64,000 nt of DNA. It comes from Eledone cirrhosa. Taxonomy: Eukaryota. The notes beneath the pieces were generated by a model. It was not told the origin of the DNA. It saw nothing but the letters and a program-made list of their open reading frames with translations, and did no database searches. Location of the stretch: positions 216,070,001 through 216,134,000 of the forward strand of contig OZ024742.1 of assembly GCA_964016885.1 (NCBI GenBank), in the 5' to 3' direction. Position numbers and translations under genes: made by a program. This document shows, one piece after another, positions 3,352 through 61,966 of this stretch. Each line of letters starts with the position of its first letter. Positions within the stretch are counted from its first letter, which is position 1.

Positions 3352-4971
3352 ATATATTTGAAGACTAAAATCCAAAGAGCGCTCAATAACGATGAATATA
3401 TATCAGATATATAAGAACCGAAGAGCAAATATTTATTAGAATAACAGATTAAAGTTTAAACAAAGAATCGCTGCATTCACCCTTATCGGGATCTTCTGAA
3501 ACTAAAGAAGTCAATCTGTGAACGCAGAAGTAAATATTTCAAAAAACGTTACAACCGAAGGAAGACAGAAAGACAATACTTTGGTTCGTGCAAACGTTCC
3601 CTGGCAAAGAACGGAAAAAACAAAACAAAATCAAAGAAGATAATTATTTGGTTCGGTGAAAACAATTACACGGAAAGACAAAACCAAGTTTATGGTATAA
3701 ATGAAGTCGTAGACTAATATTCTATTAGGTGGTTCATAGAGACGTTCTCTGGCAATGAACGAAAAAAACGAAGATAATACGTCATTAAGTGGAACGTGGA
3801 GAACAATTGCCTGCAAAGACAAAACCACGTAAATGGTATAACTGAAGTCGTAGACTAAAATTCTAACTAGGAAACCGAATGATTCTCGGCTTCAGAGTTA
3901 AGAATAAAGTAAATAAAATACAGAGGTAATTGAAATTAAATATATACATCGCATCCATATACGTACATACACAAGCATACGCAATAGAAAAAAAAACACG
4001 CACGCACATTCAGAACCCACGCAACGCCAGTACCCGCACACATACGAATGTATACAGCAAATACACATAAAAATATATATACAAATATATATATATATGT
4101 GAGTGTGTGTGTGTGTATACATAATTAAATAAACGTATAAAATATACACAAAAAAATACGTATATAACGCGCGCGCACACATACCTACATGTAAATACAC
4201 ATATGTTCGCGGACGACGTCAACCAAAACACAAAGTAAACATATACCAACGCCCTACATACGTACCAACCCGCATACTCACACAGACGCAAAACTCATGT
4301 ATACACATAACCAAATGCACATGTACCAAGATATATAATATATACGCCATAACATATACAAACAAATATACGTACGAGAAAGTATATGTACCTTCACAAA
4401 ACATACAGGTAATATATACTTACCTATACAAATAAATAATGATAAACAGAACATATACTTAACTACCACATCAAGACGTAAAATATCTGGCTATAGTTCG
4501 TACTATCCGTTAGGGTATAAGGTGGGGCTGTAATACAGGAAAGTTTTGTGCAATTTATGTTTACAAGCCGAAATTGCCTCATATTCTTTGTTTAAGATGT
4601 TGTCTTTGGAGTAGAGTATTTCCAGGGCCTCAGCAGCGCAGAGGTCACATGGTCTTTTATTTCCGTTATACGATCTAGCCCAAGCTAGGATCTCCCAGTG
4701 TAACTTATATTGACTGTGGTCGTCTTTTAGGTTCCGGATATAAGCTGAAAGTGACGTCATATTCCTTTTTAAAGTGTTCAGAAAAGAATGGGTATGCATG
4801 TAAAGACGCTGCTTGAATCTATTGGCGGTTAATCCTATGTAGACCCTACGGGACGTGGGTGTTTCAACCTTACATTTGTAGACAATATTACTAGAGAGGC
4901 ATTTCCCGGATAGGGGGCAGTCAACCCGATTCCTACAATTACAGTTAGTACTAGCTACAGGGTTGCATGTT
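3352..4971 (-). mobile_element. 5'-truncated Penelope-like element, family A (GIY-YIG C-terminus, 3' UTR and pLTR)
   Basis: ORF 4503-4799 (TSLSAYIRNLKD...WEIL...CDLCAAEALEI...LNK...CKHK) and the non-coding 3352-4500 are diverged reverse-complement copies of 60178-61646. Confidence 0.9.
3445..3518 (-). ncRNA. Family A hammerhead ribozyme, decayed copy
   Basis: agttt-CAGAAGA-tcccgataagggt-GAAT-gca...tgt-TT-aaact; GAAA is mutated to GAAT. Confidence 0.55.
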
Positions 4972-5629: not shown

Positions 5630-5631
<2 letters not shown>

Positions 5632-5720
5632 AAAAGAGTCGGGACCCCGATGGCTGACCTCCGGCCGTTTCGAGAGCTAGGTCTGAACTGTTCAGACCTA
5701 GCTGTCGAAACGACCGGTGC
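5630..5720. repeat. Fold-back palindrome related to the 7706-7918 and 52369-52564 family
   Basis: ccggccgtttcgagagctaggtctgaac-t-gttcagacctagctgtcgaaacgaccgg (5661-5717), preceded by a similar gaccccga...ccgtttcga lead-in. Confidence 0.7.
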
Positions 5721-7705: not shown

Positions 7706-7918
7706 CAAAGAAATTGTGGTAAGGAACCAGATGGACCATAACGCACCAGAGTACTCAATACTTAGGGTAGTAGAGTGGGAAATAGAAAAAAAGTATGACC
7801 CCGAGGGCAGAGCTCAAGCCGTTTCGACGGTTAATTCTGGACTAAATAGTCCAGACTAAATAGTCCAGAAACAGCCGTCGAAACGGCTTGAGCTCTGCCG
7901 TCGGAGTCATACTTTTTA
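7706..7918. mobile_element. PLE pLTR-like fold-back element carrying the 3' half of a hammerhead
   Basis: Palindrome 7788-7917 is centred on ctggactaaatagtccag and followed by GAAA-C-AGCC-GTC. An inverse-oriented sister copy lies at 52369-52564. Confidence 0.7.
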
Positions 7919-7941
7919 CTATATATATATATATATATATA

Positions 7942-8425
7942 TATTGTTATACTTGGGGAGGGTCATGTTTGTGTAATATTGCCAGAATTAATAACAGAAC
8001 ACACTCACTGTTTGGTTAGTTTTCGCTTCTCGCTGTCTTTTATATCTGCTATCTAACTTAATCGGTCCTCAATGTTGCCATTGACTGACCGACGGTCAAA
8101 AATAATACAGATACAATATAGACACAAACACATATATATAGTTTACATAATTTACATAAATCTTTCGTTGCACATCTGCAACATCGTCAGTGGTGTTATA
8201 TTTTTTTGCTCCTGTTGTGTTGTATGTCTACGCCATTTTTTATTCAGTCTGTCTATATATTTATTTATTTATTTGCTTGTTTGTTTATTTTATTTTGTCT
8301 TCTTTGCGCATGCGTTTGCGTGTGTGTACAGTGTTGTGTGTGCTGTGTGACTAGTGTGTATAGTGTTGTGTCTGCTGGGGGACTAGTGTGTGTTTATGTG
8401 CTTGTTGTTATTGTGCTTGTGTATG
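7942..8425 (-). mobile_element. Solo pLTR fragment of PLE family C
   Basis: Homologous to 52687-53135 and, as reverse complement, to 53980-54428. Confidence 0.75.
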
Positions 8426-13044: not shown

Positions 13045-14090
13045 ATGTTAGAGTAGCGTCTCGGCTTCATTTCTGCAGACAATGGCCAATCAAACCCACT
13101 GGAACACACACATCTTGCGAGGCGCCTTGCTAAGACGGGTTGCTTTCATTGCGATTTTATGGAAAAGGTAAGATCTACTGAATCTGAGTACACCTAATAT
13201 CTCGAAGGTGACCGTCTGGACGTTCCCCTGTATTTGCTTATCATCCTGTCCTCTCCATTGCGACATCGGTACTGGGGTTTCTGGCTGATGCGAATAGGAT
13301 GGAGGCAGAGAATGTTTTGCAGATTATGGATTTATCTCTCTCGAAGGGAGAGTAATTTCATATGGGGCCTTTACCGTCTCCGTGGTCGAGAGGATACCTG
13401 CCGAAATGTGACGGGAATCCGATTGCGATTAGGCTCCATTTCCTTGTGTCGTTCAGAGAAGCATGACGTGGGAATTGGCCTGCGCTCTGGTGACTTGGTA
13501 GTGGCAGCGACCTTTGAGTTGCTCACACACGCGGTGGCCAAGGCGTTTGGCAACTCCAGTGCGAGTGCAATCATCCTCAAGTAGAGTACCGATTGGTGAG
13601 GAGGCCACCCAATTGAGCCAGGCGCCGCTCTTTGGCTGCGAAGCGGAACGGAAGTAGGCGAGGTGGTGAAGGAAGACCTGTTATTAATGTTATGTTGGAT
13701 AATTGCACACTGGGTGACGGTGAGGCCTTCGCCAGACCAGTGGGTCTGAGCTAACTCCTGTTCATAATCCACGCTAGTTTTGTTCTGTTGCTGAGGACCT
13801 CGATAATGAGAGTGTAACTGGAGAAGATTGAGAAGAGGTAGGCTGACAGCGTCAGATCCAACGTAGATCGGAGGCAAGGTTACAGAATCTCTCTGGGAGC
13901 TTCGCCTGTTGCCAGTCGGCGTTTTCGAAACTAACATTGCAGATGAGTTCCGCACATAATCAGATGTTGGCATCTAGTTCAACCCGGTGATCTCGTAAAT
14001 GGTGGCAAGGTGCACCGTGCAGTGTGGACAAGAATTTAGGAAGGGTCAATCAGTTCCTCAGAAAGAAGTTCGTCGAGTGCGCGTCAATGT
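13045..14090 (-). mobile_element. CRE-clade non-LTR retrotransposon 3' fragment (restriction-like endonuclease)
   Basis: Frameshifted minus-strand peptides LRMIALAL..., HGDGKGP..SPFERDKSII..TFSASIL..SA..P, SKY, EILGV and FQWV*LAIVCRN match the CRE RLE pattern GDGKRPDG...W...KY...ET.G...FQRLSLAI.RGN. Confidence 0.75.
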
Positions 14091-20035: not shown

Positions 20036-20130
20036 TCACTTTGCCTTTCATCCTTACGGGGTCGATAAAATAAAGTACCAGTAATGCACTGGGTAATTGC
20101 TGGCCTTGTGCCAAAAGTAGAAACAATTAT
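20036..20130 (+). mobile_element. SINE 3' half inserted into the family B pLTR
   Basis: tttgcctttcatccttacggggtcgataaaataaagtaccag...aaacaattatt is absent from the inverted pLTR copy at ~23530-23545. Confidence 0.8.
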
Positions 20131-21529
20131 TTCTGTATAGCAATTCAAATTAAAAATTAAAATCAAAATTAAAATTCAAACAAAATTTAAATAAAATTAA
20201 AATACATTCGGCAGTAAACATAGATAATACAAGAGGATAGTTTGTTAGTCAGATGTAGTAGTTATTTTATGCGTTAGTTACACGTGGGGCATGCACGTGT
20301 GTTTCATATATATATGATTAATGTGTGGCAGGGTGCTACATGTAATAGAAGCACTTTAAGCGGGTAAGTAAGAGTATTATGGAGCTTGTAGTGGTAAGGT
20401 ATTTTTTGTATATAATATAAAAGTATGTGTGCAGAAAAATAAAAATAAAAAGGAGAAGCAAAAGAAAGTTATGGTTTTCGTATCTACCACCATTTTCACA
20501 TTCAGGAAATGTAATATATAGTTTATACATCCATCACATAATTAACGATGATTCCGTATTGGATGTTTGATGCATTAAATTAAATTATTTTAGCTTATTG
20601 CGGCTCAGTGTTCTTTAATCCAATTTTATAGAGCAGGTTGTTTCTGCTGCGAGAATTTACATCGGTTTATTATCCGGAAGTATGTGTATAATTAAGGGAA
20701 GTTAATGCGTAAGGGGAGGTAACTAGCTGATTTCCATAACTAAATGTATTGTTCTAACATACATTATAAGGTGTCTCAATTGAGTCCCTTATATAGACGG
20801 TTATATATTTATATTCAGTTTCCAATTTTAAATACAGTCTACTCTATCATGATGTACTAAAGGTATTTATATTATGATGATTACTCCCTATCATAGAGTG
20901 TTACAACTGAATATTCCATACACAGAGCCATATCTTTATATCAAAGTTCTTTGCAAATGTAGTCTACTCACAGAACATGTCAGGGGACCTATTAGAACTA
21001 TGTCTACATAAGCCCTGGTAAGCTGTGGAGCAGCGCATGGCTGTTTGCATGGCAAAGCCAAATCATCTCTAGGGCAGACAAAAACATCCCTCATTTACAA
21101 TGTCAATAATCTATCCATCAAGTTATACATGCATATATAACTCACATACCATTCATACACAATTCATTGCACTCAACATATATGTTATACCGATCTCTTA
21201 TGTTAATAAATTAATCTTATATATATCCAATGTTATCACTCCATACATACAAATACATTTCCACAAATAATTCATTATCGAATCTGGTATTTACAGCTTA
21301 CATAGACTGTATTGTATCACTATATAATTATAAGTAATTGAAAGTAATTATACTAAAAGTAGGTGTACATAGGGATATTTCTAGGGTATAAAGTTATAGA
21401 TAGATGGAATAATTTGTGTTGAGATGGGGTGGATCAGAGAGTGTGGAGTTGTGGTGTAAGGTGTGCCATTGAGGTGTAGTATTAGATGTGGTGATGGGTT
21501 CAAGTCTGACATTGTTATATATTGGGTTT

Positions 21530-22885
21530 AAAGTTTTGGAAGGAGTGCCGGGAGCGGTGCTGGCACAACGCGAACACTTCCGATTTTTTATTAAGGAGGT
21601 TATGGTTTGAGAAGATTATAGTATGGGTCTCTAGTAGACAGAGGTTACAGATTTATTAGGTAGTTTGTACGGTGCCGCCTTACATATCACTTCCCATTTA
21701 AGTGTATAAGATCTATTTTTAGTTTTTAGAATGTGTATGTAGCTAGATAGTGAAGTGGAGTTGGCTAGACTGTGATTTTGAAAGAATGGAGGTGTGAATT
21801 GTATCTGGTTTTGAAGCAGTTTGAAGCAGAGCCTATATATGTTTCAGAAGAGTTGCTAGTTATGACGGTGCATGAGTATATGATGTCCATGATTAAGCAT
21901 TTTTTATCTAAAGGGCAGGTTCTATTAGATCTACCGTTACAATTATTTTGGATGTTAACCTGCCGGTTATTATGTTGTGTAGAAGTCTGGTTGCTAGTTA
22001 TTGCATTATGGCTATGGGGGTTGTCGCTCTCAGCGTTATTGCTTACACTAGTGTTATTACTATTATTACTATTGATATCAGGGTTTGTAGATATAATGTT
22101 GTTTTGAAGGTTTACCCCCTGCCGTGTTTTAGTTTGTTGGAAATAAGTATTATTTTTTCTTTTATTGCTACTAGCTATGTGGTATGCTATGTTAGGCGTG
22201 GTACAGTAGGAGATTTTTATTGTATTTTTTTTATAAGACTATGGTACTTGTGGCCAGATGGGAAGTTTTTTATCCAGGAGTGAGAAGAAAGCGTTATGTA
22301 GGTTGTTAGAGACGTTTAGATTGAAAGGAGGGTTGAAAAATGTTTATTTCTTCTATTTTTGTTTTTTATGTCTGGTGAGATGCTTCCGTTTATGGTATTA
22401 TGGTGACTTCTGTGGTGTGGGTTACGTTTGTTGCCACTCTTCGTACTAGTGTGTGTGTGGTTATTATTTTTATTACTATTTTTCCTCATGGACATATTGT
22501 GCGAAATAATGTTGTAACTATGTGTTTTTGTAGGTAGGAATTCGATCTCATTATTATGGCCTGATCTAGCTAATGCCTGATTATAATATTGTGAGTTTTT
22601 GTTAAATATGTTTTCGTCATAAGATGGATTAGAGATTCTATTGGATATTCCCTTAGAGATAGAGTTTAATATTGATCTAGGGTGGTTAGACTTGGTATCT
22701 ACGTAAATCAGTTTTTCGTTAGGTTTATGGAATGGTGTATATATCCTAGAGTCTAGGTAAAGGGTGGCAAATAGGAAGTTAACGTTTTTAGTGTTTTTGT
22801 CTATGGTGATACATAGGTTATAGTTTTTGAAAGTCTTGTGCAAGAGTTTTCTAGTTCTTTCTATATTAATTTTTTTATATATTAA
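21530..22885 (-). pseudogene. PLE RT C-terminus, linker and GIY-YIG endonuclease (frameshifted)
   Basis: ORF 22316-22843 PFHKPNEKLIYVDTKSNHPRSIL...YYNQALARSG, then FFNPPFNL, CPLDKKCL, YIGSASNCFK. Confidence 0.85.
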
Positions 22886-23625
22886 ATGTATGTTTTATGT
22901 ATGTTAGAACAATACATTTAGTTATGCAAATCAGCTAGTTACCGCCCCTTACGCATTAACTCCCCTTAATTACACACATACTTCCTGATAATAAACCGAT
23001 GTAAATTCTCGCAGCAGAAACAACCTGCTCCATAAAATTGGATTAAAGAACACTGAGCCACAATAAGCTAAAATAATTTAATTTAATGCATCAAACATCC
23101 AATACGGAATCTTCGTTAATTATGTGAGGGATGTATAAACTATATATTACATTTCCTGAATATGAAAATTGTGGTGGATACGAAAACCATAACTTTCTTT
23201 TGCTTCTCCTTTTTATTTTTATTTTTCTGCACACATACTTTTTTATTATATACAAAAAATACCTTACCACTACAAGCTCCATAATACTCTTACGTACCCG
23301 TTTAAAGTGCTTCTATTATATGTAACACCCTGCCACACAATAATCATATATAAATGAGACACACGTGCATGCCCCACGTGTAACTAACGCATAAAATAAC
23401 TACTACATCTGACTAACAAACTATCCTCTTGCATTATCTATGTTTACTGCCGAATGTATTCTAATTTTCTTTTAATTTTGCTTTAATTTTAATTTTGATT
23501 TTGATTTTTAATTTGAATTGCTATACAGAAATAATATAATATAATATATGTCACTCCACTATACATCAATATATACATATGTATCTGTATGTCTCTTGCG
23601 TTGGAAAGGAGCTCAATTATGTGTA

Positions 23626-37309: not shown

Positions 37310-37915
37310 TATATGAAAATTAGAATTGGTGCTCTGAAATAGCGATATATATATGAATGTATATATAGTGTATTTTGCAATACAATGTATGCTTAATTAA
37401 AAGCATTTCGAAGGCCTTACGCCGCTATTCTTTTAGAGTAGTGACAGTCTCACTTACTTTAATTTTCAGCAAACAGGGGAGATAAAGCTGACAGAGCCCT
37501 GTTTCGCACTTTTTGGTGCTTATTAAAGCTAAATGCTTCTAATTAAGCATACAGTGTATCGCAAAATACACTATATATACATTCATATATATATATCGCT
37601 ATTTCAGAGCACCAATTCTAATTTTCAATTTCTGCTTGACCGGCAACCGCTATGTATATTCAGTTCCTGATTATTACTAGAATTCTATAAGAATCAAACA
37701 TTCATGATTTTCAGCAAACAGGCGGAATAGTTAGCTTTGATAAGCACCAAAAAGTGCGAAACAGAGCTCTGTCAGCTTTATCTCCCCTGTTTGCTGAAAA
37801 TTAAAGTAAGTGAGACTGTCACTACTCTAAAAGAATAGCGGCGTAAGGTCTTCGAAATGCTGTTAATTAAGCATACAGTGTATTGCAAAATACACTATAT
37901 ATACATTCATATATA
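37310..37915. mobile_element. pLTR-like inverted-repeat element (family F)
   Basis: 37342-37532 is inverted to 37731-37918, with an internal partial repeat at 37535-37627. Confidence 0.75.
37707..37801 (+). ncRNA. Type I hammerhead with U3:A8 covariant core
   Basis: agct-TTGATAA-gcac(caaaaa)gtgc-GAAA-cagagctctg-TC^agct, with a long distal stem I (ttttcagcaaacagg / cctgtttgctgaaaa). Confidence 0.85.
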
Positions 37916-37919
37916 TATA

Positions 37920-40494: not shown

Positions 40495-40620
40495 AAGTTT
40501 TATTTAAATTGTTGGGTTACAACGAGTAAATATTTATAACTGATATAAAAGCACTCAACAAGTATTTGGAGTATATTTACGATATTAAATAAATGGAAAC
40601 TATATTTATAAAACCATATT

Positions 40621-40686
40621 TATTTCATTATATATATTTCAGGGATATCATATTAAAAATATGGTATGCCTTCTTCAGACAAAATA
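40621..40686 (-). ncRNA. Canonical type I minimal hammerhead (family D), mirror copy
   Basis: Exact reverse complement of 40912-40977. Confidence 0.85.
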
Positions 40687-40911
40687 CAATATAAACAGTC
40701 TTATAAATAGATAGATTTGACATACCTTACAACTTCAACTTCCATTTAAAAAGTTGATTTGGTAGTGAAAAATGTTAGGGACAGTTATAAAAAGAAAGAA
40801 AGAAATTTTATAACTGTCCCTAACATTTTTCACTACCAAATCAACTTTTTAAATGGAAGTTGAAGTTGTAAGGTATGTCAAATCTATCTATTTATAAGAC
40901 TGTTTATATTG

Positions 40912-40977
40912 TATTTTGTCTGAAGAAGGCATACCATATTTTTAATATGATATCCCTGAAATATATATAATGAAATA
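40912..40977 (+). ncRNA. Canonical type I minimal hammerhead (family D)
   Basis: tattttgt-CTGAAGA-agg..catatt/aatatg..cct-GAAA-tatata-TA^atgaaata, giving an 8-bp stem I, with AATAAA overlapping its end. Confidence 0.85.
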
Positions 40978-41003
40978 AATATGGTTTTATAAATATAGTT
41001 TCC

Positions 41004-41099
<96 letters not shown>

Positions 41100-52238: not shown

Positions 52239-52368
52239 CGTAGGTAGTACGCTGAAATACTGATATAGGTTCCAAATCAAGCACTCTATACACAGGCAGA
52301 GTGTACTTAATAGAAAAATCGAGCAACTTTCGTTTATATATATACACATATATATATATATATATATA

Positions 52369-52562
52369 TAGGAACAAGTATGACCCCGGCGGCAGGGCTC
52401 AAGCCTTTTCGACGGCTATTTCTGGAGTCCAGAAATAGCCGTCGAAATGGCTTGAGCTCTGCCGTCGGGGTCATACTTGTTCCTATTACCCACTCTACTA
52501 CCCTAAGTATTGAGTACTTTGGTGCGTTATGGTCCATCTGGTTCTTTACCACATTTCCTTCG

Positions 52563-52564
<2 letters not shown>
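52369..52564 (+). mobile_element. PLE pLTR-like fold-back element carrying the 3' half of a hammerhead
   Basis: Palindrome 52369-52485 centred on tctgga-g-tccaga, followed by GAAA-T-AGCC-GTC; sister of 7706-7918. Confidence 0.7.
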
Positions 52565-52646: not shown

Positions 52647-52686
<40 letters not shown>

Positions 52687-54470
52687 GGGGAGTGTCATAT
52701 TGTTGTAATAATATTGCCAGAATTAATAACAGAACGCACTCATTGTTTGGTTGGTTTTCGCTTCTGTATCTTTTATATTTGTTAATTTATTCGGTCCTCA
52801 ATGTTTACCATTGACTGACCAACGGTCAAAAGTACAGATATAATATAGATATAAACACATATATATAGTCTAACAAAGTTCTTTCGTTGCACATCTGCAA
52901 CAACGTCAGTGGTGCTATTACGTTCCTCCTGTTGTATTGTTTATTTAGCCATTTTTATTTAATCTGTTTATTTATTTATTTATTTACTTTTGTCTTCTCT
53001 GCGCATGCGTTTGCGTGTTTGTATAGTGTTTGGTGTGTGTTCGCGTTTGGGTGACTGTGTTTTGGTTATTGTATTCTATTTCAGTTTACTAGTGTGTGCT
53101 TTTATGTGTTTGTTGTTATTGTGCTTGTGTATATATTTACTTATTTATTTATTAATATTTCTCTTGGGTCAGTATTGTTTGTTTAGGTGTCGTCGTTATT
53201 CCATTCATTTTTTCTGTTTAGCTTTGGCCTTCTAAGTTCTATTTCATTTGCCTCTCTGATTTACCTATCTGGTGGGTTATTTCTATGTTTAGATATTACT
53301 TCAATTTCTATGTTGTCTATGTTACCGTTATGTTGTTATCTGGCGTGTTCGTATAGTACTGAACCGTTTTTTCGTCCTTTTAGCCCCCCCCCCCCCCCCA
53401 GTGCTGGTCTATCCATTAACATATGCTACGAGATGTATCACCTATGTATGTTGTTGTCATGTTTCTTCAAGTACCCTCTGTACATCTTGTCCAATAGACT
53501 ACGTTTCTAGTTTTACAGTTTATCCGGGGGTTTACTTTACATATAATACATTTCCTATTAGTACAGTGGGTTTTCTTAAAAAGGTATGTTTTGCTGATCA
53601 GGGATTTTATGGTAGTTCCTGGCTTTTCTACCACCTTAATCTTTAAGTGGGTCTTTCTCAGGGCCTTTCTACACTGGTTAGCTAATTTTCGACCAGAGGT
53701 AGCGTCCACAAACATGACACTCTGGTACCAGAGCGTCACAAAAACGTATCAGTACTATAAGAACACGCCAGACAACAACCTGACGACAACATAGACAACA
53801 TAGAAATTAAAATAATATCTAAACATAGAAATGACCTAGCAGATAGGCAAATCAGAGAGGCAAGTGAAATAGAACGTAGAAAGCCAAAACTAAACAGAAA
53901 AAATGAATGGAACAACAACACCCAAACAAACAGTACTGACCTAAGAGAATTATAAATAAATAAATAAATATATATATATATATACACAAGTACAATAACA
54001 GCAAACACATATAAGCACACACTAGTAAACTAAGACAATAACCAAAACACAACCCAAACGCGAACACACACCAAACACTATACACACACGCAAACGCATA
54101 CGCAAAGAATAAGACAAAAATAAATAAATAATTAAATAAACAGATTCAATACTTAAATATACAATACAACAGGAGGAACATAATAGCACCACTGACGATG
54201 TTTCAGATGTGCAACGAAAGCACTTTGTTAGACTATATATGTGTGTTTATATCTATATTATATCTGTACTTTTGACCGTTGGTCAGTCAATGGTAAACAT
54301 TGAGGACCGAATGAATTAAAGGATATAAAAGATACAGAAGCGAAAACCAACCAAACAGTGAGTGTGTTCTGTTATTAATTCTGGAAATACTATTACAACA
54401 ATATGACCCTCCCCAAGTATAACAATATTTGTCTCGACACACGATTTCATATCAAAAACCTCGCAAAACA
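52687..54470 (-). mobile_element. Penelope-like element family C (Naiad/Neptune-like): GIY-YIG fragment between inverted pLTRs
   Basis: Inverted repeats 52687-53372 vs 53740-54415. Region 53400-53735 translates SVMFVDAT..KLA..KIKVVEKPG..C....C..C..NCKTRNVVY...C...*...YIGDTSRS. Confidence 0.85.
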
Positions 54471-54526
54471 AATATAATATATATATATATACATATACAT
54501 ATATACAAACACACACATATATATAT

Positions 54527-54741
54527 AAGGAAATACAGTTTTAGGAAGCCGTAGCTATGCAAACACCGGGGCCTGTCTTCTAGTCCAGCAGTCGCAAGCG
54601 CTGGGAGGGACCGTCCTGACGAAGGCCAGTTAAGCCTGAAATGAATAGACAGTTGTCCCCCTTGCTTCTGCTGGATATCACCAGAGGGCGTTATTCCCCC
54701 GGTGTAAGCATCGCTACGGCTTCCTAAAACCGTATTTCCTT
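54527..54741 (+). ncRNA. Rod-like hairpin element capped by a canonical minimal hammerhead (family G)
   Basis: gtc-CTGACGA-aggc(cagttaa)gcct-GAAA-tgaa-TA^gac at 54613-54650, inside ~45-bp terminal inverted arms. Confidence 0.82.
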
Positions 54742-55734
54742 GGAGATACAAAATCTTTATGCATATATATATATATATATATACATGCGTGTGTACCTAC
54801 ACGTATCCGACCAATATTAAAACACCTGTCATAATATTTGCTATAATTTATGAATATTTCCTTTCTCTATATAGATTCGCTTGGTAATCATTCTTCAATC
54901 TATTCTATCGAGTTTTACCACTAAAAAACAGGAGGCAAAATAAGTATGTCGTGTGGGAGAAGATACCTAGCGAATTTATGACTACTTTAAAAAAATGAAT
55001 CTGAAAACACGAATAATTTTCTCTCCAGTCAAGCAAGTAGAAATCACCGGTCTACGAATGACTGAATATAGAATCTCCCCACTTTAGAATCTTCTGTTTG
55101 TATAGTACATTCTCTCTCTCGCATATTCAATCAAATTCTTCCATCACTATTTCTATGTGTGTTATATTATTGTAGATATTTTTCAAATCTAACAATAAAT
55201 CTGAATAAGAGTGACACCCACACGCAGGCACATGCACTGACATACCCTCACATACACCAACACACATATACTTACACGCCCATACTTGCACTTACCCAAG
55301 ACGCACCCGCATCCTCACATATACATTCAAATAAATATGCATTTTTGGATATTAGGAAAACTATGTTTGCATATAAATTGAAATATTTTGTCCATTTTTG
55401 CGCTGCCTTTTATAAGTTCAGTTTGAATGTATGTTTATCTATGTATACAGAGGTTTAACTGATAATCATACTATTGCAACACACTATCTGTAACTATCTT
55501 TATTTATGTTCGTTTAAGTCACCATATTTCGATGATGTTTTTTAGTTTTTTTATATAGGTGTTGAAACACTCACTGTAGTAAATGAGAAATGTTACTTCT
55601 TTCGTTTTTCATCAGCCGTATTCTAATAGAGACGGAGTAGACAATCTTAGACTCACTACAATTACCAATAATATAATATTGAAAAACATTATAGTAATGA
55701 ATATGTCTAAAGTCTAAAGTCTGTCTTAAGCCAG

Positions 55735-56163: not shown

Positions 56164-56465
<302 letters not shown>

Positions 56466-59112: not shown

Positions 59113-60641
59113 TAACCCTACGAATCCGATTTAGGTAGACTTAGTAAAACGATTCTTGATAGAATTATACCTGAAATTAGAAGTCTGGCCCCTCTTGCAC
59201 TGTGGAACAATTCTTTCGCGGTGATTGATTGGTTCAACGGCATATGTAACAAGGAACATTGCCGTTTTATCCAATTTGACATCAACAATTACTACTCCTC
59301 CATCACTTTACCACTTCTCCTTAGAGCTATCAATTTCGCTAAAACACTCACAGTGGTTAAGGATTTCGAAGTTGATGTCATCCTCAATGCCCGTAAGTCG
59401 GTGATTAATTTCGACGACTCTATTTGGATTAAAAAATCCAATAGTACCCCATTCGACGTGAGTATGGGCGTCAGCAATTCTGCGGAGGTTACTGATCTTA
59501 TCGGCCTTTTCCTTCTTTTCTCTCCCAAGGACGAATTCCCCAACGCGGGCGGTGGTTTGTACAGTGATGATGGTCTTTTGACCATGACTAAGTGCGGACC
59601 TCGTGCTTGCGACAGGTTCAGAAAATAACTCACAGCCTTCTTTAGCGGCTTCAACCTCTCTATACAGGTTGAGGCCAATCTCTCGGTCGTTAATTACCTC
59701 GACGTTGCCCTCAATTTATTGAATGGGTTGTATTACCCGTATAGAATGCCGAATGATACGCTTAATTACATAAGTAAGCATTCCAACCATCCTGCCAGCA
59801 TAACCAAGAACCTGGTAAGAAACGTTTCGTTGAGGCATTCCCGTCTATCTACTAACGAGCATATTTTCAACGACCATTCCACTTATTACAATGAAGCTCT
59901 TGCTCGGAGTGGATTTGTCGATAAGGTAGCATATACAGAATACGAAAATAGACCTAGAAGAAATAGATCCCGTCGTATTTGTTGGTATAACCCACCATAT
60001 AATATGGAGGTGGCCACACCATTAGCTAAGATATTTCTTTCCCTTATTACGAAGCATTTTCCCGCAACACATAAATATAGTAAAATGTTTAATAGAAATA
60101 CTATTTCTTACTCTACGACTCCTAACCTTGCACATAACATCACAGCTTCAAATTTAGCTAAACTACCTAGCCGTAGGAACACGTGCAACCCTGTAGTTAG
60201 TACTAACTGTAATTGTAGGAATCGGGTTATTTGCCCCCTATCCGGGAAATGCCTCTCTAGTAACATCGTCTACAAACGTAAGGTTGAAACACCCACGTCC
60301 CGTAGGGCCTACATAGGGTTAACCGCCAATAGATTCAAGCAGCGTCTTTACATGCATACCCATTATTTTCGTTACCCTCTAAGAAGGAATATGACGTCAC
60401 TTTCAGCTTATATCTAAAAGACAACCACACCCAATATAAGTTACACTGGGAGATCCTAGCTTGGGCTAGATCGTATAACGGAAATAAAAGACCATGTGAC
60501 CTCTGCGCCGCTGAGGCCCTGGAAATACTCTACGCCACAGACCACATCTTAAACAAAACATCTGAGGCAATTTCGGCTTGTAAACATAAATTGCACAAAA
60601 CTTTCCTGTATTACAGCCCCACGTTATACCCTAACGGATAG
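59113..60641 (+). pseudogene. PLE reverse transcriptase - GIY-YIG endonuclease (interrupted)
   Basis: FIQFDINNYYSSI, FDVSMG, GLYSDDGL, SNHP, WYNPPY, CNCR...CPLSGKCL, IVY...AYIGLT...FKQR...H; contains stops and frameshifts. Confidence 0.92.
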
Positions 60642-61724: not shown

Positions 61725-61904
61725 ATATTGTTATACTTTGGGAGTGTCATGTTGCCAATAAGAAACACATGCACCAGTTGCTTTCACTTCATTTTATTAT
61801 AATAAATTTATAAATTCCTAAATTTATAAATTTATTATAATAAATTGAAGTGGAAGCAACTGGTGCGTGTGTTTCTTATTGGCAACATGACCCTCCCAAA
61901 GTAT

Positions 61905-61910
<6 letters not shown>
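61725..61910. repeat. Fold-back of a pLTR-like terminal sequence
   Basis: ~90-bp arms around aaattcctaaattt; shares tattgttatactt.ggga.ggtcat with 7943 and 54405. Confidence 0.75.

Positions 61911-61966
<56 letters not shown>

Follow-up and report, generated by a model that had tools for sequence, protein, structure and literature searches.

Structure of the hairpin locus

The 215-nt hairpin occupies positions 54527-54741 of the window, by which we mean the whole 64,000-nt stretch of the Eledone cirrhosa genome analysed here. To its left lies a degenerate head-to-head insertion of an autonomous family of Penelope-like elements (PLEs) that we call PLE-N (52673-54469), which carries an endonuclease remnant on the minus strand and a minimal hammerhead at 54192 and is not part of the retrozyme; another remnant with a minimal hammerhead is present at 7941-8305. 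The hairpin is bordered on the left by a TA/CA microsatellite (54477-54526), common to the end of the neighbouring PLE insertion, and on the right by the TA microsatellite that constitutes the target site (54762-54786).

The element between these repeats consists of two arms. The main arm (54571-54766, plus strand) is a 5'-truncated retrozyme monomer that spans family positions 153-348 and whose fixed 3' end, termed A, is fused to the TA run. It is preceded by an inverted short arm (54527-54571, minus strand), which corresponds to family positions ~279-323 reversed and makes the outer stem of the rod. Over family positions 162-348 the copy differs from the family column majority at 13 places, and both arms carry the minor allele at family position 321. 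Within the main arm, a conserved stem domain (54583-54676, plus strand) bears the hammerhead at its tip and, unlike the outer stem, is a feature of the family, its outer helix being paired in 97.9% of cells among 44 sequences.

The outer stem pairs 54527-54571 with 54697-54741, with four mismatches in 45 positions (54537/54731, 54556/54712 and 54561-62/54706-07). The 231-nt stretch containing the hairpin has a predicted fold of -114.6 kcal/mol (z -11.2), which was equalled by none of 200 shuffles. With 41 of 45 arm positions paired and this z value, the hairpin that had been proposed from the letters alone is real; its extent of 215 nt holds for the hairpin itself, but the element continues to ~54766. 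Among the contigs listed for four runs of one study, none spans the junction at 54571, but contigs within the repeat are too short for this to count either way. An artefact of read fold-back at this junction is unlikely, because the two arms disagree at 4 of their 45 positions.

The hairpin belongs to a family of 323-nt tandem repeats

With the 215-nt hairpin as query, a search of the same 3.0-Gb genome gave 2,298 candidates, 40 of which were scored. The outer arm is missing from 36 of the 40 best-scoring places, which match only from query position 45-47; the other four, window included, match from the first base, and the three other rod-like loci each have their own breakpoints and flanks. 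Mapping the loci on a natural copy revealed a unit of 323 nt that runs head-to-tail into itself. The ribozyme domain, counted by flanking anchors, has at least 745 copies in the genome, and its 37-nt core is found 376 times in exact form (controls: 0). Head-to-tail dimers with the 323-nt period number 47, and one array of ~10 units (3.3 kb; G000:C2:83920630-83923934, loci L147/L148) finishes at A. Six matched cores of this array have a common helix I variant, and an identical internal deletion recurs five units apart, a pattern that suggests rolling-circle copying followed by local duplication. All loci were chosen by similarity or by ribozyme patterns, not randomly.

We collected 37 distinct cut-to-cut monomers of 312-339 nt with a GC content of 0.40-0.45; the ribozyme core was not found on their antisense strand. 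The longest ATG frames in three 700-nt dimer stretches with flanks measure 93, 70 and 37 codons. By its sequence the family thus appears non-coding, with GC under 50% and no LTR structure, as expected of a retrozyme. Folded as a circle, the monomer reaches -99 to -104 kcal/mol with 61-64% of its bases paired, in a branched rather than a rod-like structure (z ~ -5 in 40 shuffles) in which the hammerhead is predicted to be free to form, and the antisense strand folds better (z -8). On the sense strand no A>G excess indicative of A-to-I editing of the template was seen (9.2 versus 11.6 T>C per 1000).

An older subfamily, with 95 matches, has a 339-nt unit and an extra small hairpin, and both subfamilies form tandems despite their different monomer lengths. 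A relaxed hammerhead pattern gave 30 further matches, which by their matched letters resemble variants of the two known subfamilies; a related further family was hence discarded.

The hammerhead ribozyme

In the window copy, the type I hammerhead motif (54609-54654, plus strand) comprises the CTGACGA core (54616-54622), helix II with a 7-nt loop (54623-54637), the GAAA element (54638-54641) and helix I, formed by 54609-54615 with 54648-54654. Helix III is a single pair, and the cut is predicted after 54647. Helices I and II show ensemble pairing probabilities of 0.6-0.99, except for one mismatched pair, compared with 0.68-1.0 in family monomers. The description of an intact hammerhead at the apex was accurate as to the location and the invariant core and too generous otherwise, given substitutions at 54644 and 54651 relative to the family. 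The first breaks the palindrome that forms helix III in the family, changing the self-duplex from -4.7 to +2.6 kcal/mol, and the second creates the mismatch in helix I. The ribozyme of this copy is therefore predicted to be weak or dead. Palindromic helices III are found in the dimer-cleaving hammerheads of both axolotl retrozymes and PLEs (PMC7229834, PMC6765202).

Rfam gave no match in the window at the gathering score, and the hammerhead family was absent among 16 matches at E<=5 for three loci; our own hammerhead pattern scan does not pick up two minimal motifs, at 54192 and 8190. Evidence from the family comes from 44 aligned ribozyme domains of both subfamilies, in which three of the four helix II pairs and one helix I pair are altered on both sides between the subfamilies. 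The 60 compensatory cells were reached by none of 500 shuffles, but the count of four compensated pairs is not above control (426 of 500 shuffles), so that only the cell-level measures exceed it; moreover, these changes represent one or two evolutionary events per pair, not 44 independent ones. Two further differences between the subfamilies within the motif sit at the free positions N7 and H17, as named in established hammerhead numbering. We infer that the ribozyme was kept by selection in a replicating lineage.

At family position 205 (column 43 of alignment A1), 13% of the copies carry a variant that puts U-U in place of the base pair at the foot of helix II, as has been described for axolotl HHR_Amex2 (PMC7229834). 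Since the variant is common to both arms, it likely existed in the replicating RNA.

Two fixed 3' ends and two arms with shared alleles

The 3' ends of the insertions cluster at two points, A (~348) and B (~391), 43 nt apart, and the 5' ends are variable. TA/CA repeats are abutted by 163 of 197 A or B ends, compared with 13% of random window positions; the targets are microsatellites, in which a target-site duplication cannot be read. A first set of 74 simple two-armed insertions comprised 46 that end in A at one side and in B at the opposite side (A+B), 4 A+A, 1 B+B and 23 unclassified cases (p 1e-9). In a second set of 36 further loci, 20 insertions were found, of which 14 were A+B, 1 was A+A and 5 were unclassified. 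When these sets are included in a pool of 118 head-to-head insertions, A+B accounts for 74 of the 80 classifiable ones, and the remaining 38, including the window's through its left end, have an end that fits neither of the two. In the older subfamily, the insertions end at the two homologous sites.

The window's exception is a look-alike of B, 68 nt short, and such an end is seen in about 2 of 244 cases; it may have arisen by a mis-start or by later slippage. Arm lengths range from tens to hundreds of bases, and some arms contain several units. One arm with the ribozyme and the other without is the arrangement in 28 of the 118 simple two-armed insertions. That the window's arms enclose the ribozyme rather than duplicate it was therefore seen correctly in form and is nothing special: the enclosure, and with it the contrast with the other fold-backs of the window, reflects the truncation point of the inverted arm.

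We further asked how often the two arms agree, using 13 polymorphic columns inside the element. Where the first arm has a minor allele, the second has it too with a probability of 0.80 (81 shared, 40 discordant, from 127 junctions), compared with 0.85 (80) for tandem units and background allele frequencies of 0.08-0.33. At the same time, 39 of the 74 A+B pairs are not nested, which means that in many insertions neither arm can have been copied from its partner. Because the arms share rare alleles yet are often not nested, the simplest reading is that they would represent two primings of one RNA, or of sibling RNAs from one locus. Multi-unit tandem arms with shared alleles fit a circular template, and a linear multimer would fit as well. 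The insertions as a whole carry the signature of PLEs, namely a tail at one end, an inverted 5'-truncated copy, partial tandems and an AT-rich target.

The main competitor keeps the same retrozyme and PLE helper and derives the inverted arm from fold-back self-priming on the first cDNA or from later gene conversion. Self-priming has been proposed for inverted PLE structures (PMC3846280), and gene conversion after insertion could be a source of the allele sharing between the arms. Nesting is seen in 35 of the 74 A+B pairs, and the window's own short arm is nested. However, in the 39 non-nested pairs neither arm can be a copy of its partner, fold-back alone leaves the A+B rule unexplained, and breakpoints showed no significant hot spot where the conserved stem has its base (27 of 236, p 0.08; 8 of 236, p 0.99). 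We thus consider this explanation improbable, though it is the strongest of the alternatives, and prefer two primings.

PLE-N as a candidate helper

PLE-N is a very large and young family in this genome, with 19,607 candidates, many of which have open frames of up to ~1,217 aa within tandems of 4.0-4.15 kb. Intact ORFs of ~1,210 aa contain an asparagine-rich insert, and both tandem and head-to-head copies occur in TA runs. Among 15 head-to-head PLE-N loci picked from the match list, 13 are A+B, lie in TA runs and have a tail of 41 or ~57 nt, and two are unclassed. The PLE-N protein had no match in Pfam and weak matches to RTs in the PDB (E 0.048 and 0.14); its assignment as a PLE rests on motifs read from the sequence.

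The retrozyme monomer and PLE-N are not homologous overall (best E 0.43), which is why PLE-N is a candidate helper lineage rather than the identified parent. The A sites of the older subfamily and PLE-N have about eight letters in common at the start point, half of them TA-like, a likeness that is suggestive only. At one locus (L261:1700-3234), an older-subfamily retrozyme arm with a B end is joined head-to-head to the 3' part of a PLE-N relative (65% nucleotide identity over 479 nt), which has a hammerhead of its own. Direct joins of this kind were found at 1 of 248 loci, and this one could also have originated by sequential insertion.

A more radical alternative holds that the repeat is the pseudo-LTR (pLTR) of an autonomous PLE, or a derivative of one gutted by internal deletion, that its short copies are ordinary 5'-truncated insertions, and that a self-propagating ribozyme RNA is not involved. 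Indeed, every insertion feature described above is a PLE feature, vertebrate retrozymes are related to pLTRs (10.64898/2026.07.22.740005), and at locus L015 the endonuclease end of a PLE is immediately followed by a retrozyme arm. The original prediction had itself named an ordinary internal pLTR segment of a described PLE as a finding that would refute it. What stands upstream of the monomer, however, is the monomer itself, as in the 47 dimers and in arms of up to several units, and the two subfamilies are both tandem with different monomer lengths. Twelve wider older-subfamily loci have no RT-endonuclease ORF in register between the copies, and an RT and GIY-YIG ORF flanked by the repeat was not found in a sample of ~250 loci. 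The PLE at L015 was dismissed as the parent, since none of its 29 other copies carries a retrozyme at that place. Widely spaced older-subfamily copies were likewise considered as a pLTR-ORF-pLTR arrangement and proved to be duplicated segments. This origin is therefore very unlikely.

Proposed mechanism

Altogether, we are confident that the hairpin is a truncated, mutated copy of an animal non-LTR retrozyme, a 323-nt tandem repeat with a hammerhead. Self-cleavage of its RNA is predicted and circularisation likely, and a PLE enzyme acting in trans likely reverse-transcribed it into a TA run, leaving an inverted arm. In the mechanism that we propose, dimers or longer arrays would be transcribed, and the array RNA would be cut once per unit by hammerheads acting as dimers via the palindromic helix III. 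The resulting monomer would be ligated into a circle, as shown for the retrozymes of coral, mussel and axolotl (PMC7229834). A PLE protein would nick both strands of (TA)n, and each nick would prime its own cDNA, one starting at A and the second at B, on a single RNA or on siblings from one source locus; the cDNAs may circle the RNA more than once and would then be joined at their truncated ends.

The most specific form of this mechanism, in which a PLE dimer copies a single circular retrozyme RNA from two fixed starts, one per nicked (TA)n strand, is put forward tentatively, as a possibility somewhat short of probable. If true, 'one RNA, two starts' would explain the inverted copy, the one-end tail and the partial tandems of PLEs in one step, the TA-targeting PLE-N lineage would be identified as the helper, and the 323-nt circle would be a natural minimal substrate for PLE retrotransposition. 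Because the same genome has an intact ORF of this candidate helper, the model is open to the existing in vitro PLE assay.

The notion that the mobile unit is a 215-nt viroid-like rod RNA, or else a MITE whose terminal inverted repeats measure 45 bp, is largely refuted and has next to no chance of being right: the rod is very stable, has similar counterparts at three other loci and lies between TA-rich flanks, but 36 of the 40 best places are without the outer arm, the arms can be tens or hundreds of bases long, a fixed length with terminal inverted repeats is not the rule among the copies, the main arm goes 25 nt beyond the inverted repeat, none of the four arm mismatches is compensated, the family monomer is a branched circle with 61-64% paired bases, and the other strand is without a ribozyme core. 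A viroid-like or delta-like circular RNA was also rejected, given the branched monomer, a ribozyme in one polarity only and hundreds of genomic copies.

The outer stem is a stretch of the element's own 3' region in inverted orientation, and the 215-nt rod is a by-product of the insertion of a retrozyme, not the element. The idea of a retrozyme-like non-coding mobile RNA accordingly stands for the family, on the evidence of its copies, dimers and compensatory changes, and falls where it took the rod as the unit. With a single unit and a weakened ribozyme, the window copy is likely a dead end. The hairpin as such is an ordinary, decaying insertion, and its significance lies in the insertion rule at the level of the family.

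Comparison with known systems

The family resembles the metazoan non-LTR retrozymes (PMC7229834), especially axolotl HHR_Amex1 (~330 nt), in having a type I hammerhead once per non-coding unit of 320-340 nt, GC under 50%, head-to-tail units, co-existing PLEs, a one-pair helix III and a palindromic tetraloop; its two length variants recall those of coral retrozymes, which are a ~20-nt indel apart (PMC7229834). It agrees with the metazoan non-LTR retrozymes in every property that its genomic sequence lets one read; the window copy alone is a partial monomer, and tandem units are a property of the family only. In contrast to the retrozymes of PMC7229834, which are satellites, the copies here are mostly dispersed insertions of one to two units with inverted arms in TA runs. 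The accessible text of that paper does not describe fixed 3' ends or inverted arms and treats a PLE helper as a strong candidate only; expression and circles are shown for its retrozymes and are predictions for the family here.

The present family also fits the working definition of vertebrate retrozymes, there regarded as non-autonomous PLE derivatives, by which complete type I motifs must be present in two units in succession (Li, Clavereau, Pollet 2026, 10.64898/2026.07.22.740005), and co-occurrence with PLEs is alike. The vertebrate case, as set out in the accessible part of that study, is built on co-occurrence and pLTR homology, mainly in Xenopus, whereas here we observe PLE-type insertion ends and found no homologous pLTR.

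With endonuclease-bearing PLEs (Penelope/Poseidon, Neptune, Nematis; PMC8557442, PMC3846280) the insertions have in common 5' truncation, partial tandems, a head-to-head inverted copy and a one-end tail; unlike these elements, the family is without an ORF, and its tail measures 43 nt compared with 30-40 nt in PLEs. The biochemistry of the PAc PLE (PMC11167929) offers further parallels, namely two internal RT starts that bound the tail, AT-rich targets, cutting and extension of both strands and a dimeric protein model. In vitro, PAc displayed no strand preference between the start sites (PMC11167929), whereas the genomic insertions here pair A with B far above chance.

Because the 323-nt unit is short, whole two-armed insertions can be read by the hundreds, which makes the A+B rule, the allele sharing and the non-nesting direct. 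In L1 twin priming, a single RNA primed twice likewise yields an inverted 5' part, but its source is a stretch further upstream that does not overlap; here, the arms overlap and have their starts near one place.

The retrozyme kind is already known; the insertion rule is new and testable. In a literature search covering largely open-access main texts, we found no account of the A+B rule with shared alleles or of a direct PLE insertion signature on a retrozyme. The rule bears on two open points, the enzyme that moves animal retrozymes, for which proposals have been made (PMC7229834, 10.64898/2026.07.22.740005), and the origin of head-to-head PLE insertions with a one-end tail, called undefined in the accessible text of PMC8557442.

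Other repeats in the window and at related loci

Further fold-backs of other families, most of them beside TA runs, are found in the window at 40572-41026, with a hammerhead on each arm (40678 and 40920), and at 56164-56465, 61725-61912, 20126-23535, 37345-37918, 5630-5717 and 7788-7917; they are probably two-armed PLE insertions of the same pattern. A second RT/endonuclease family is represented by fragments at 59116-60417, 21765-22894 and 4503-4970, and its homologues are mostly unnamed proteins of ~700 aa with 36-43% identity. Searches of the PLE fragments and their homologues against Pfam gave no relevant match. A GC-rich island (50%) at 13198-13973 contains a 200-codon open frame on the minus strand, for which Pfam had no match.

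Retrozyme copies also border on other repeats. At L026:750-1038 (L027 is the same site), a retrozyme arm with an A end is joined to 43 nt of the end of another TA-associated repeat, which in the window makes the fold-back at 52368-52564. At L010:1801 and L052:1713, retrozyme copies are cut at the A site by the end of a further repeat that finishes in CTAG and that we take to be Helitron-like.
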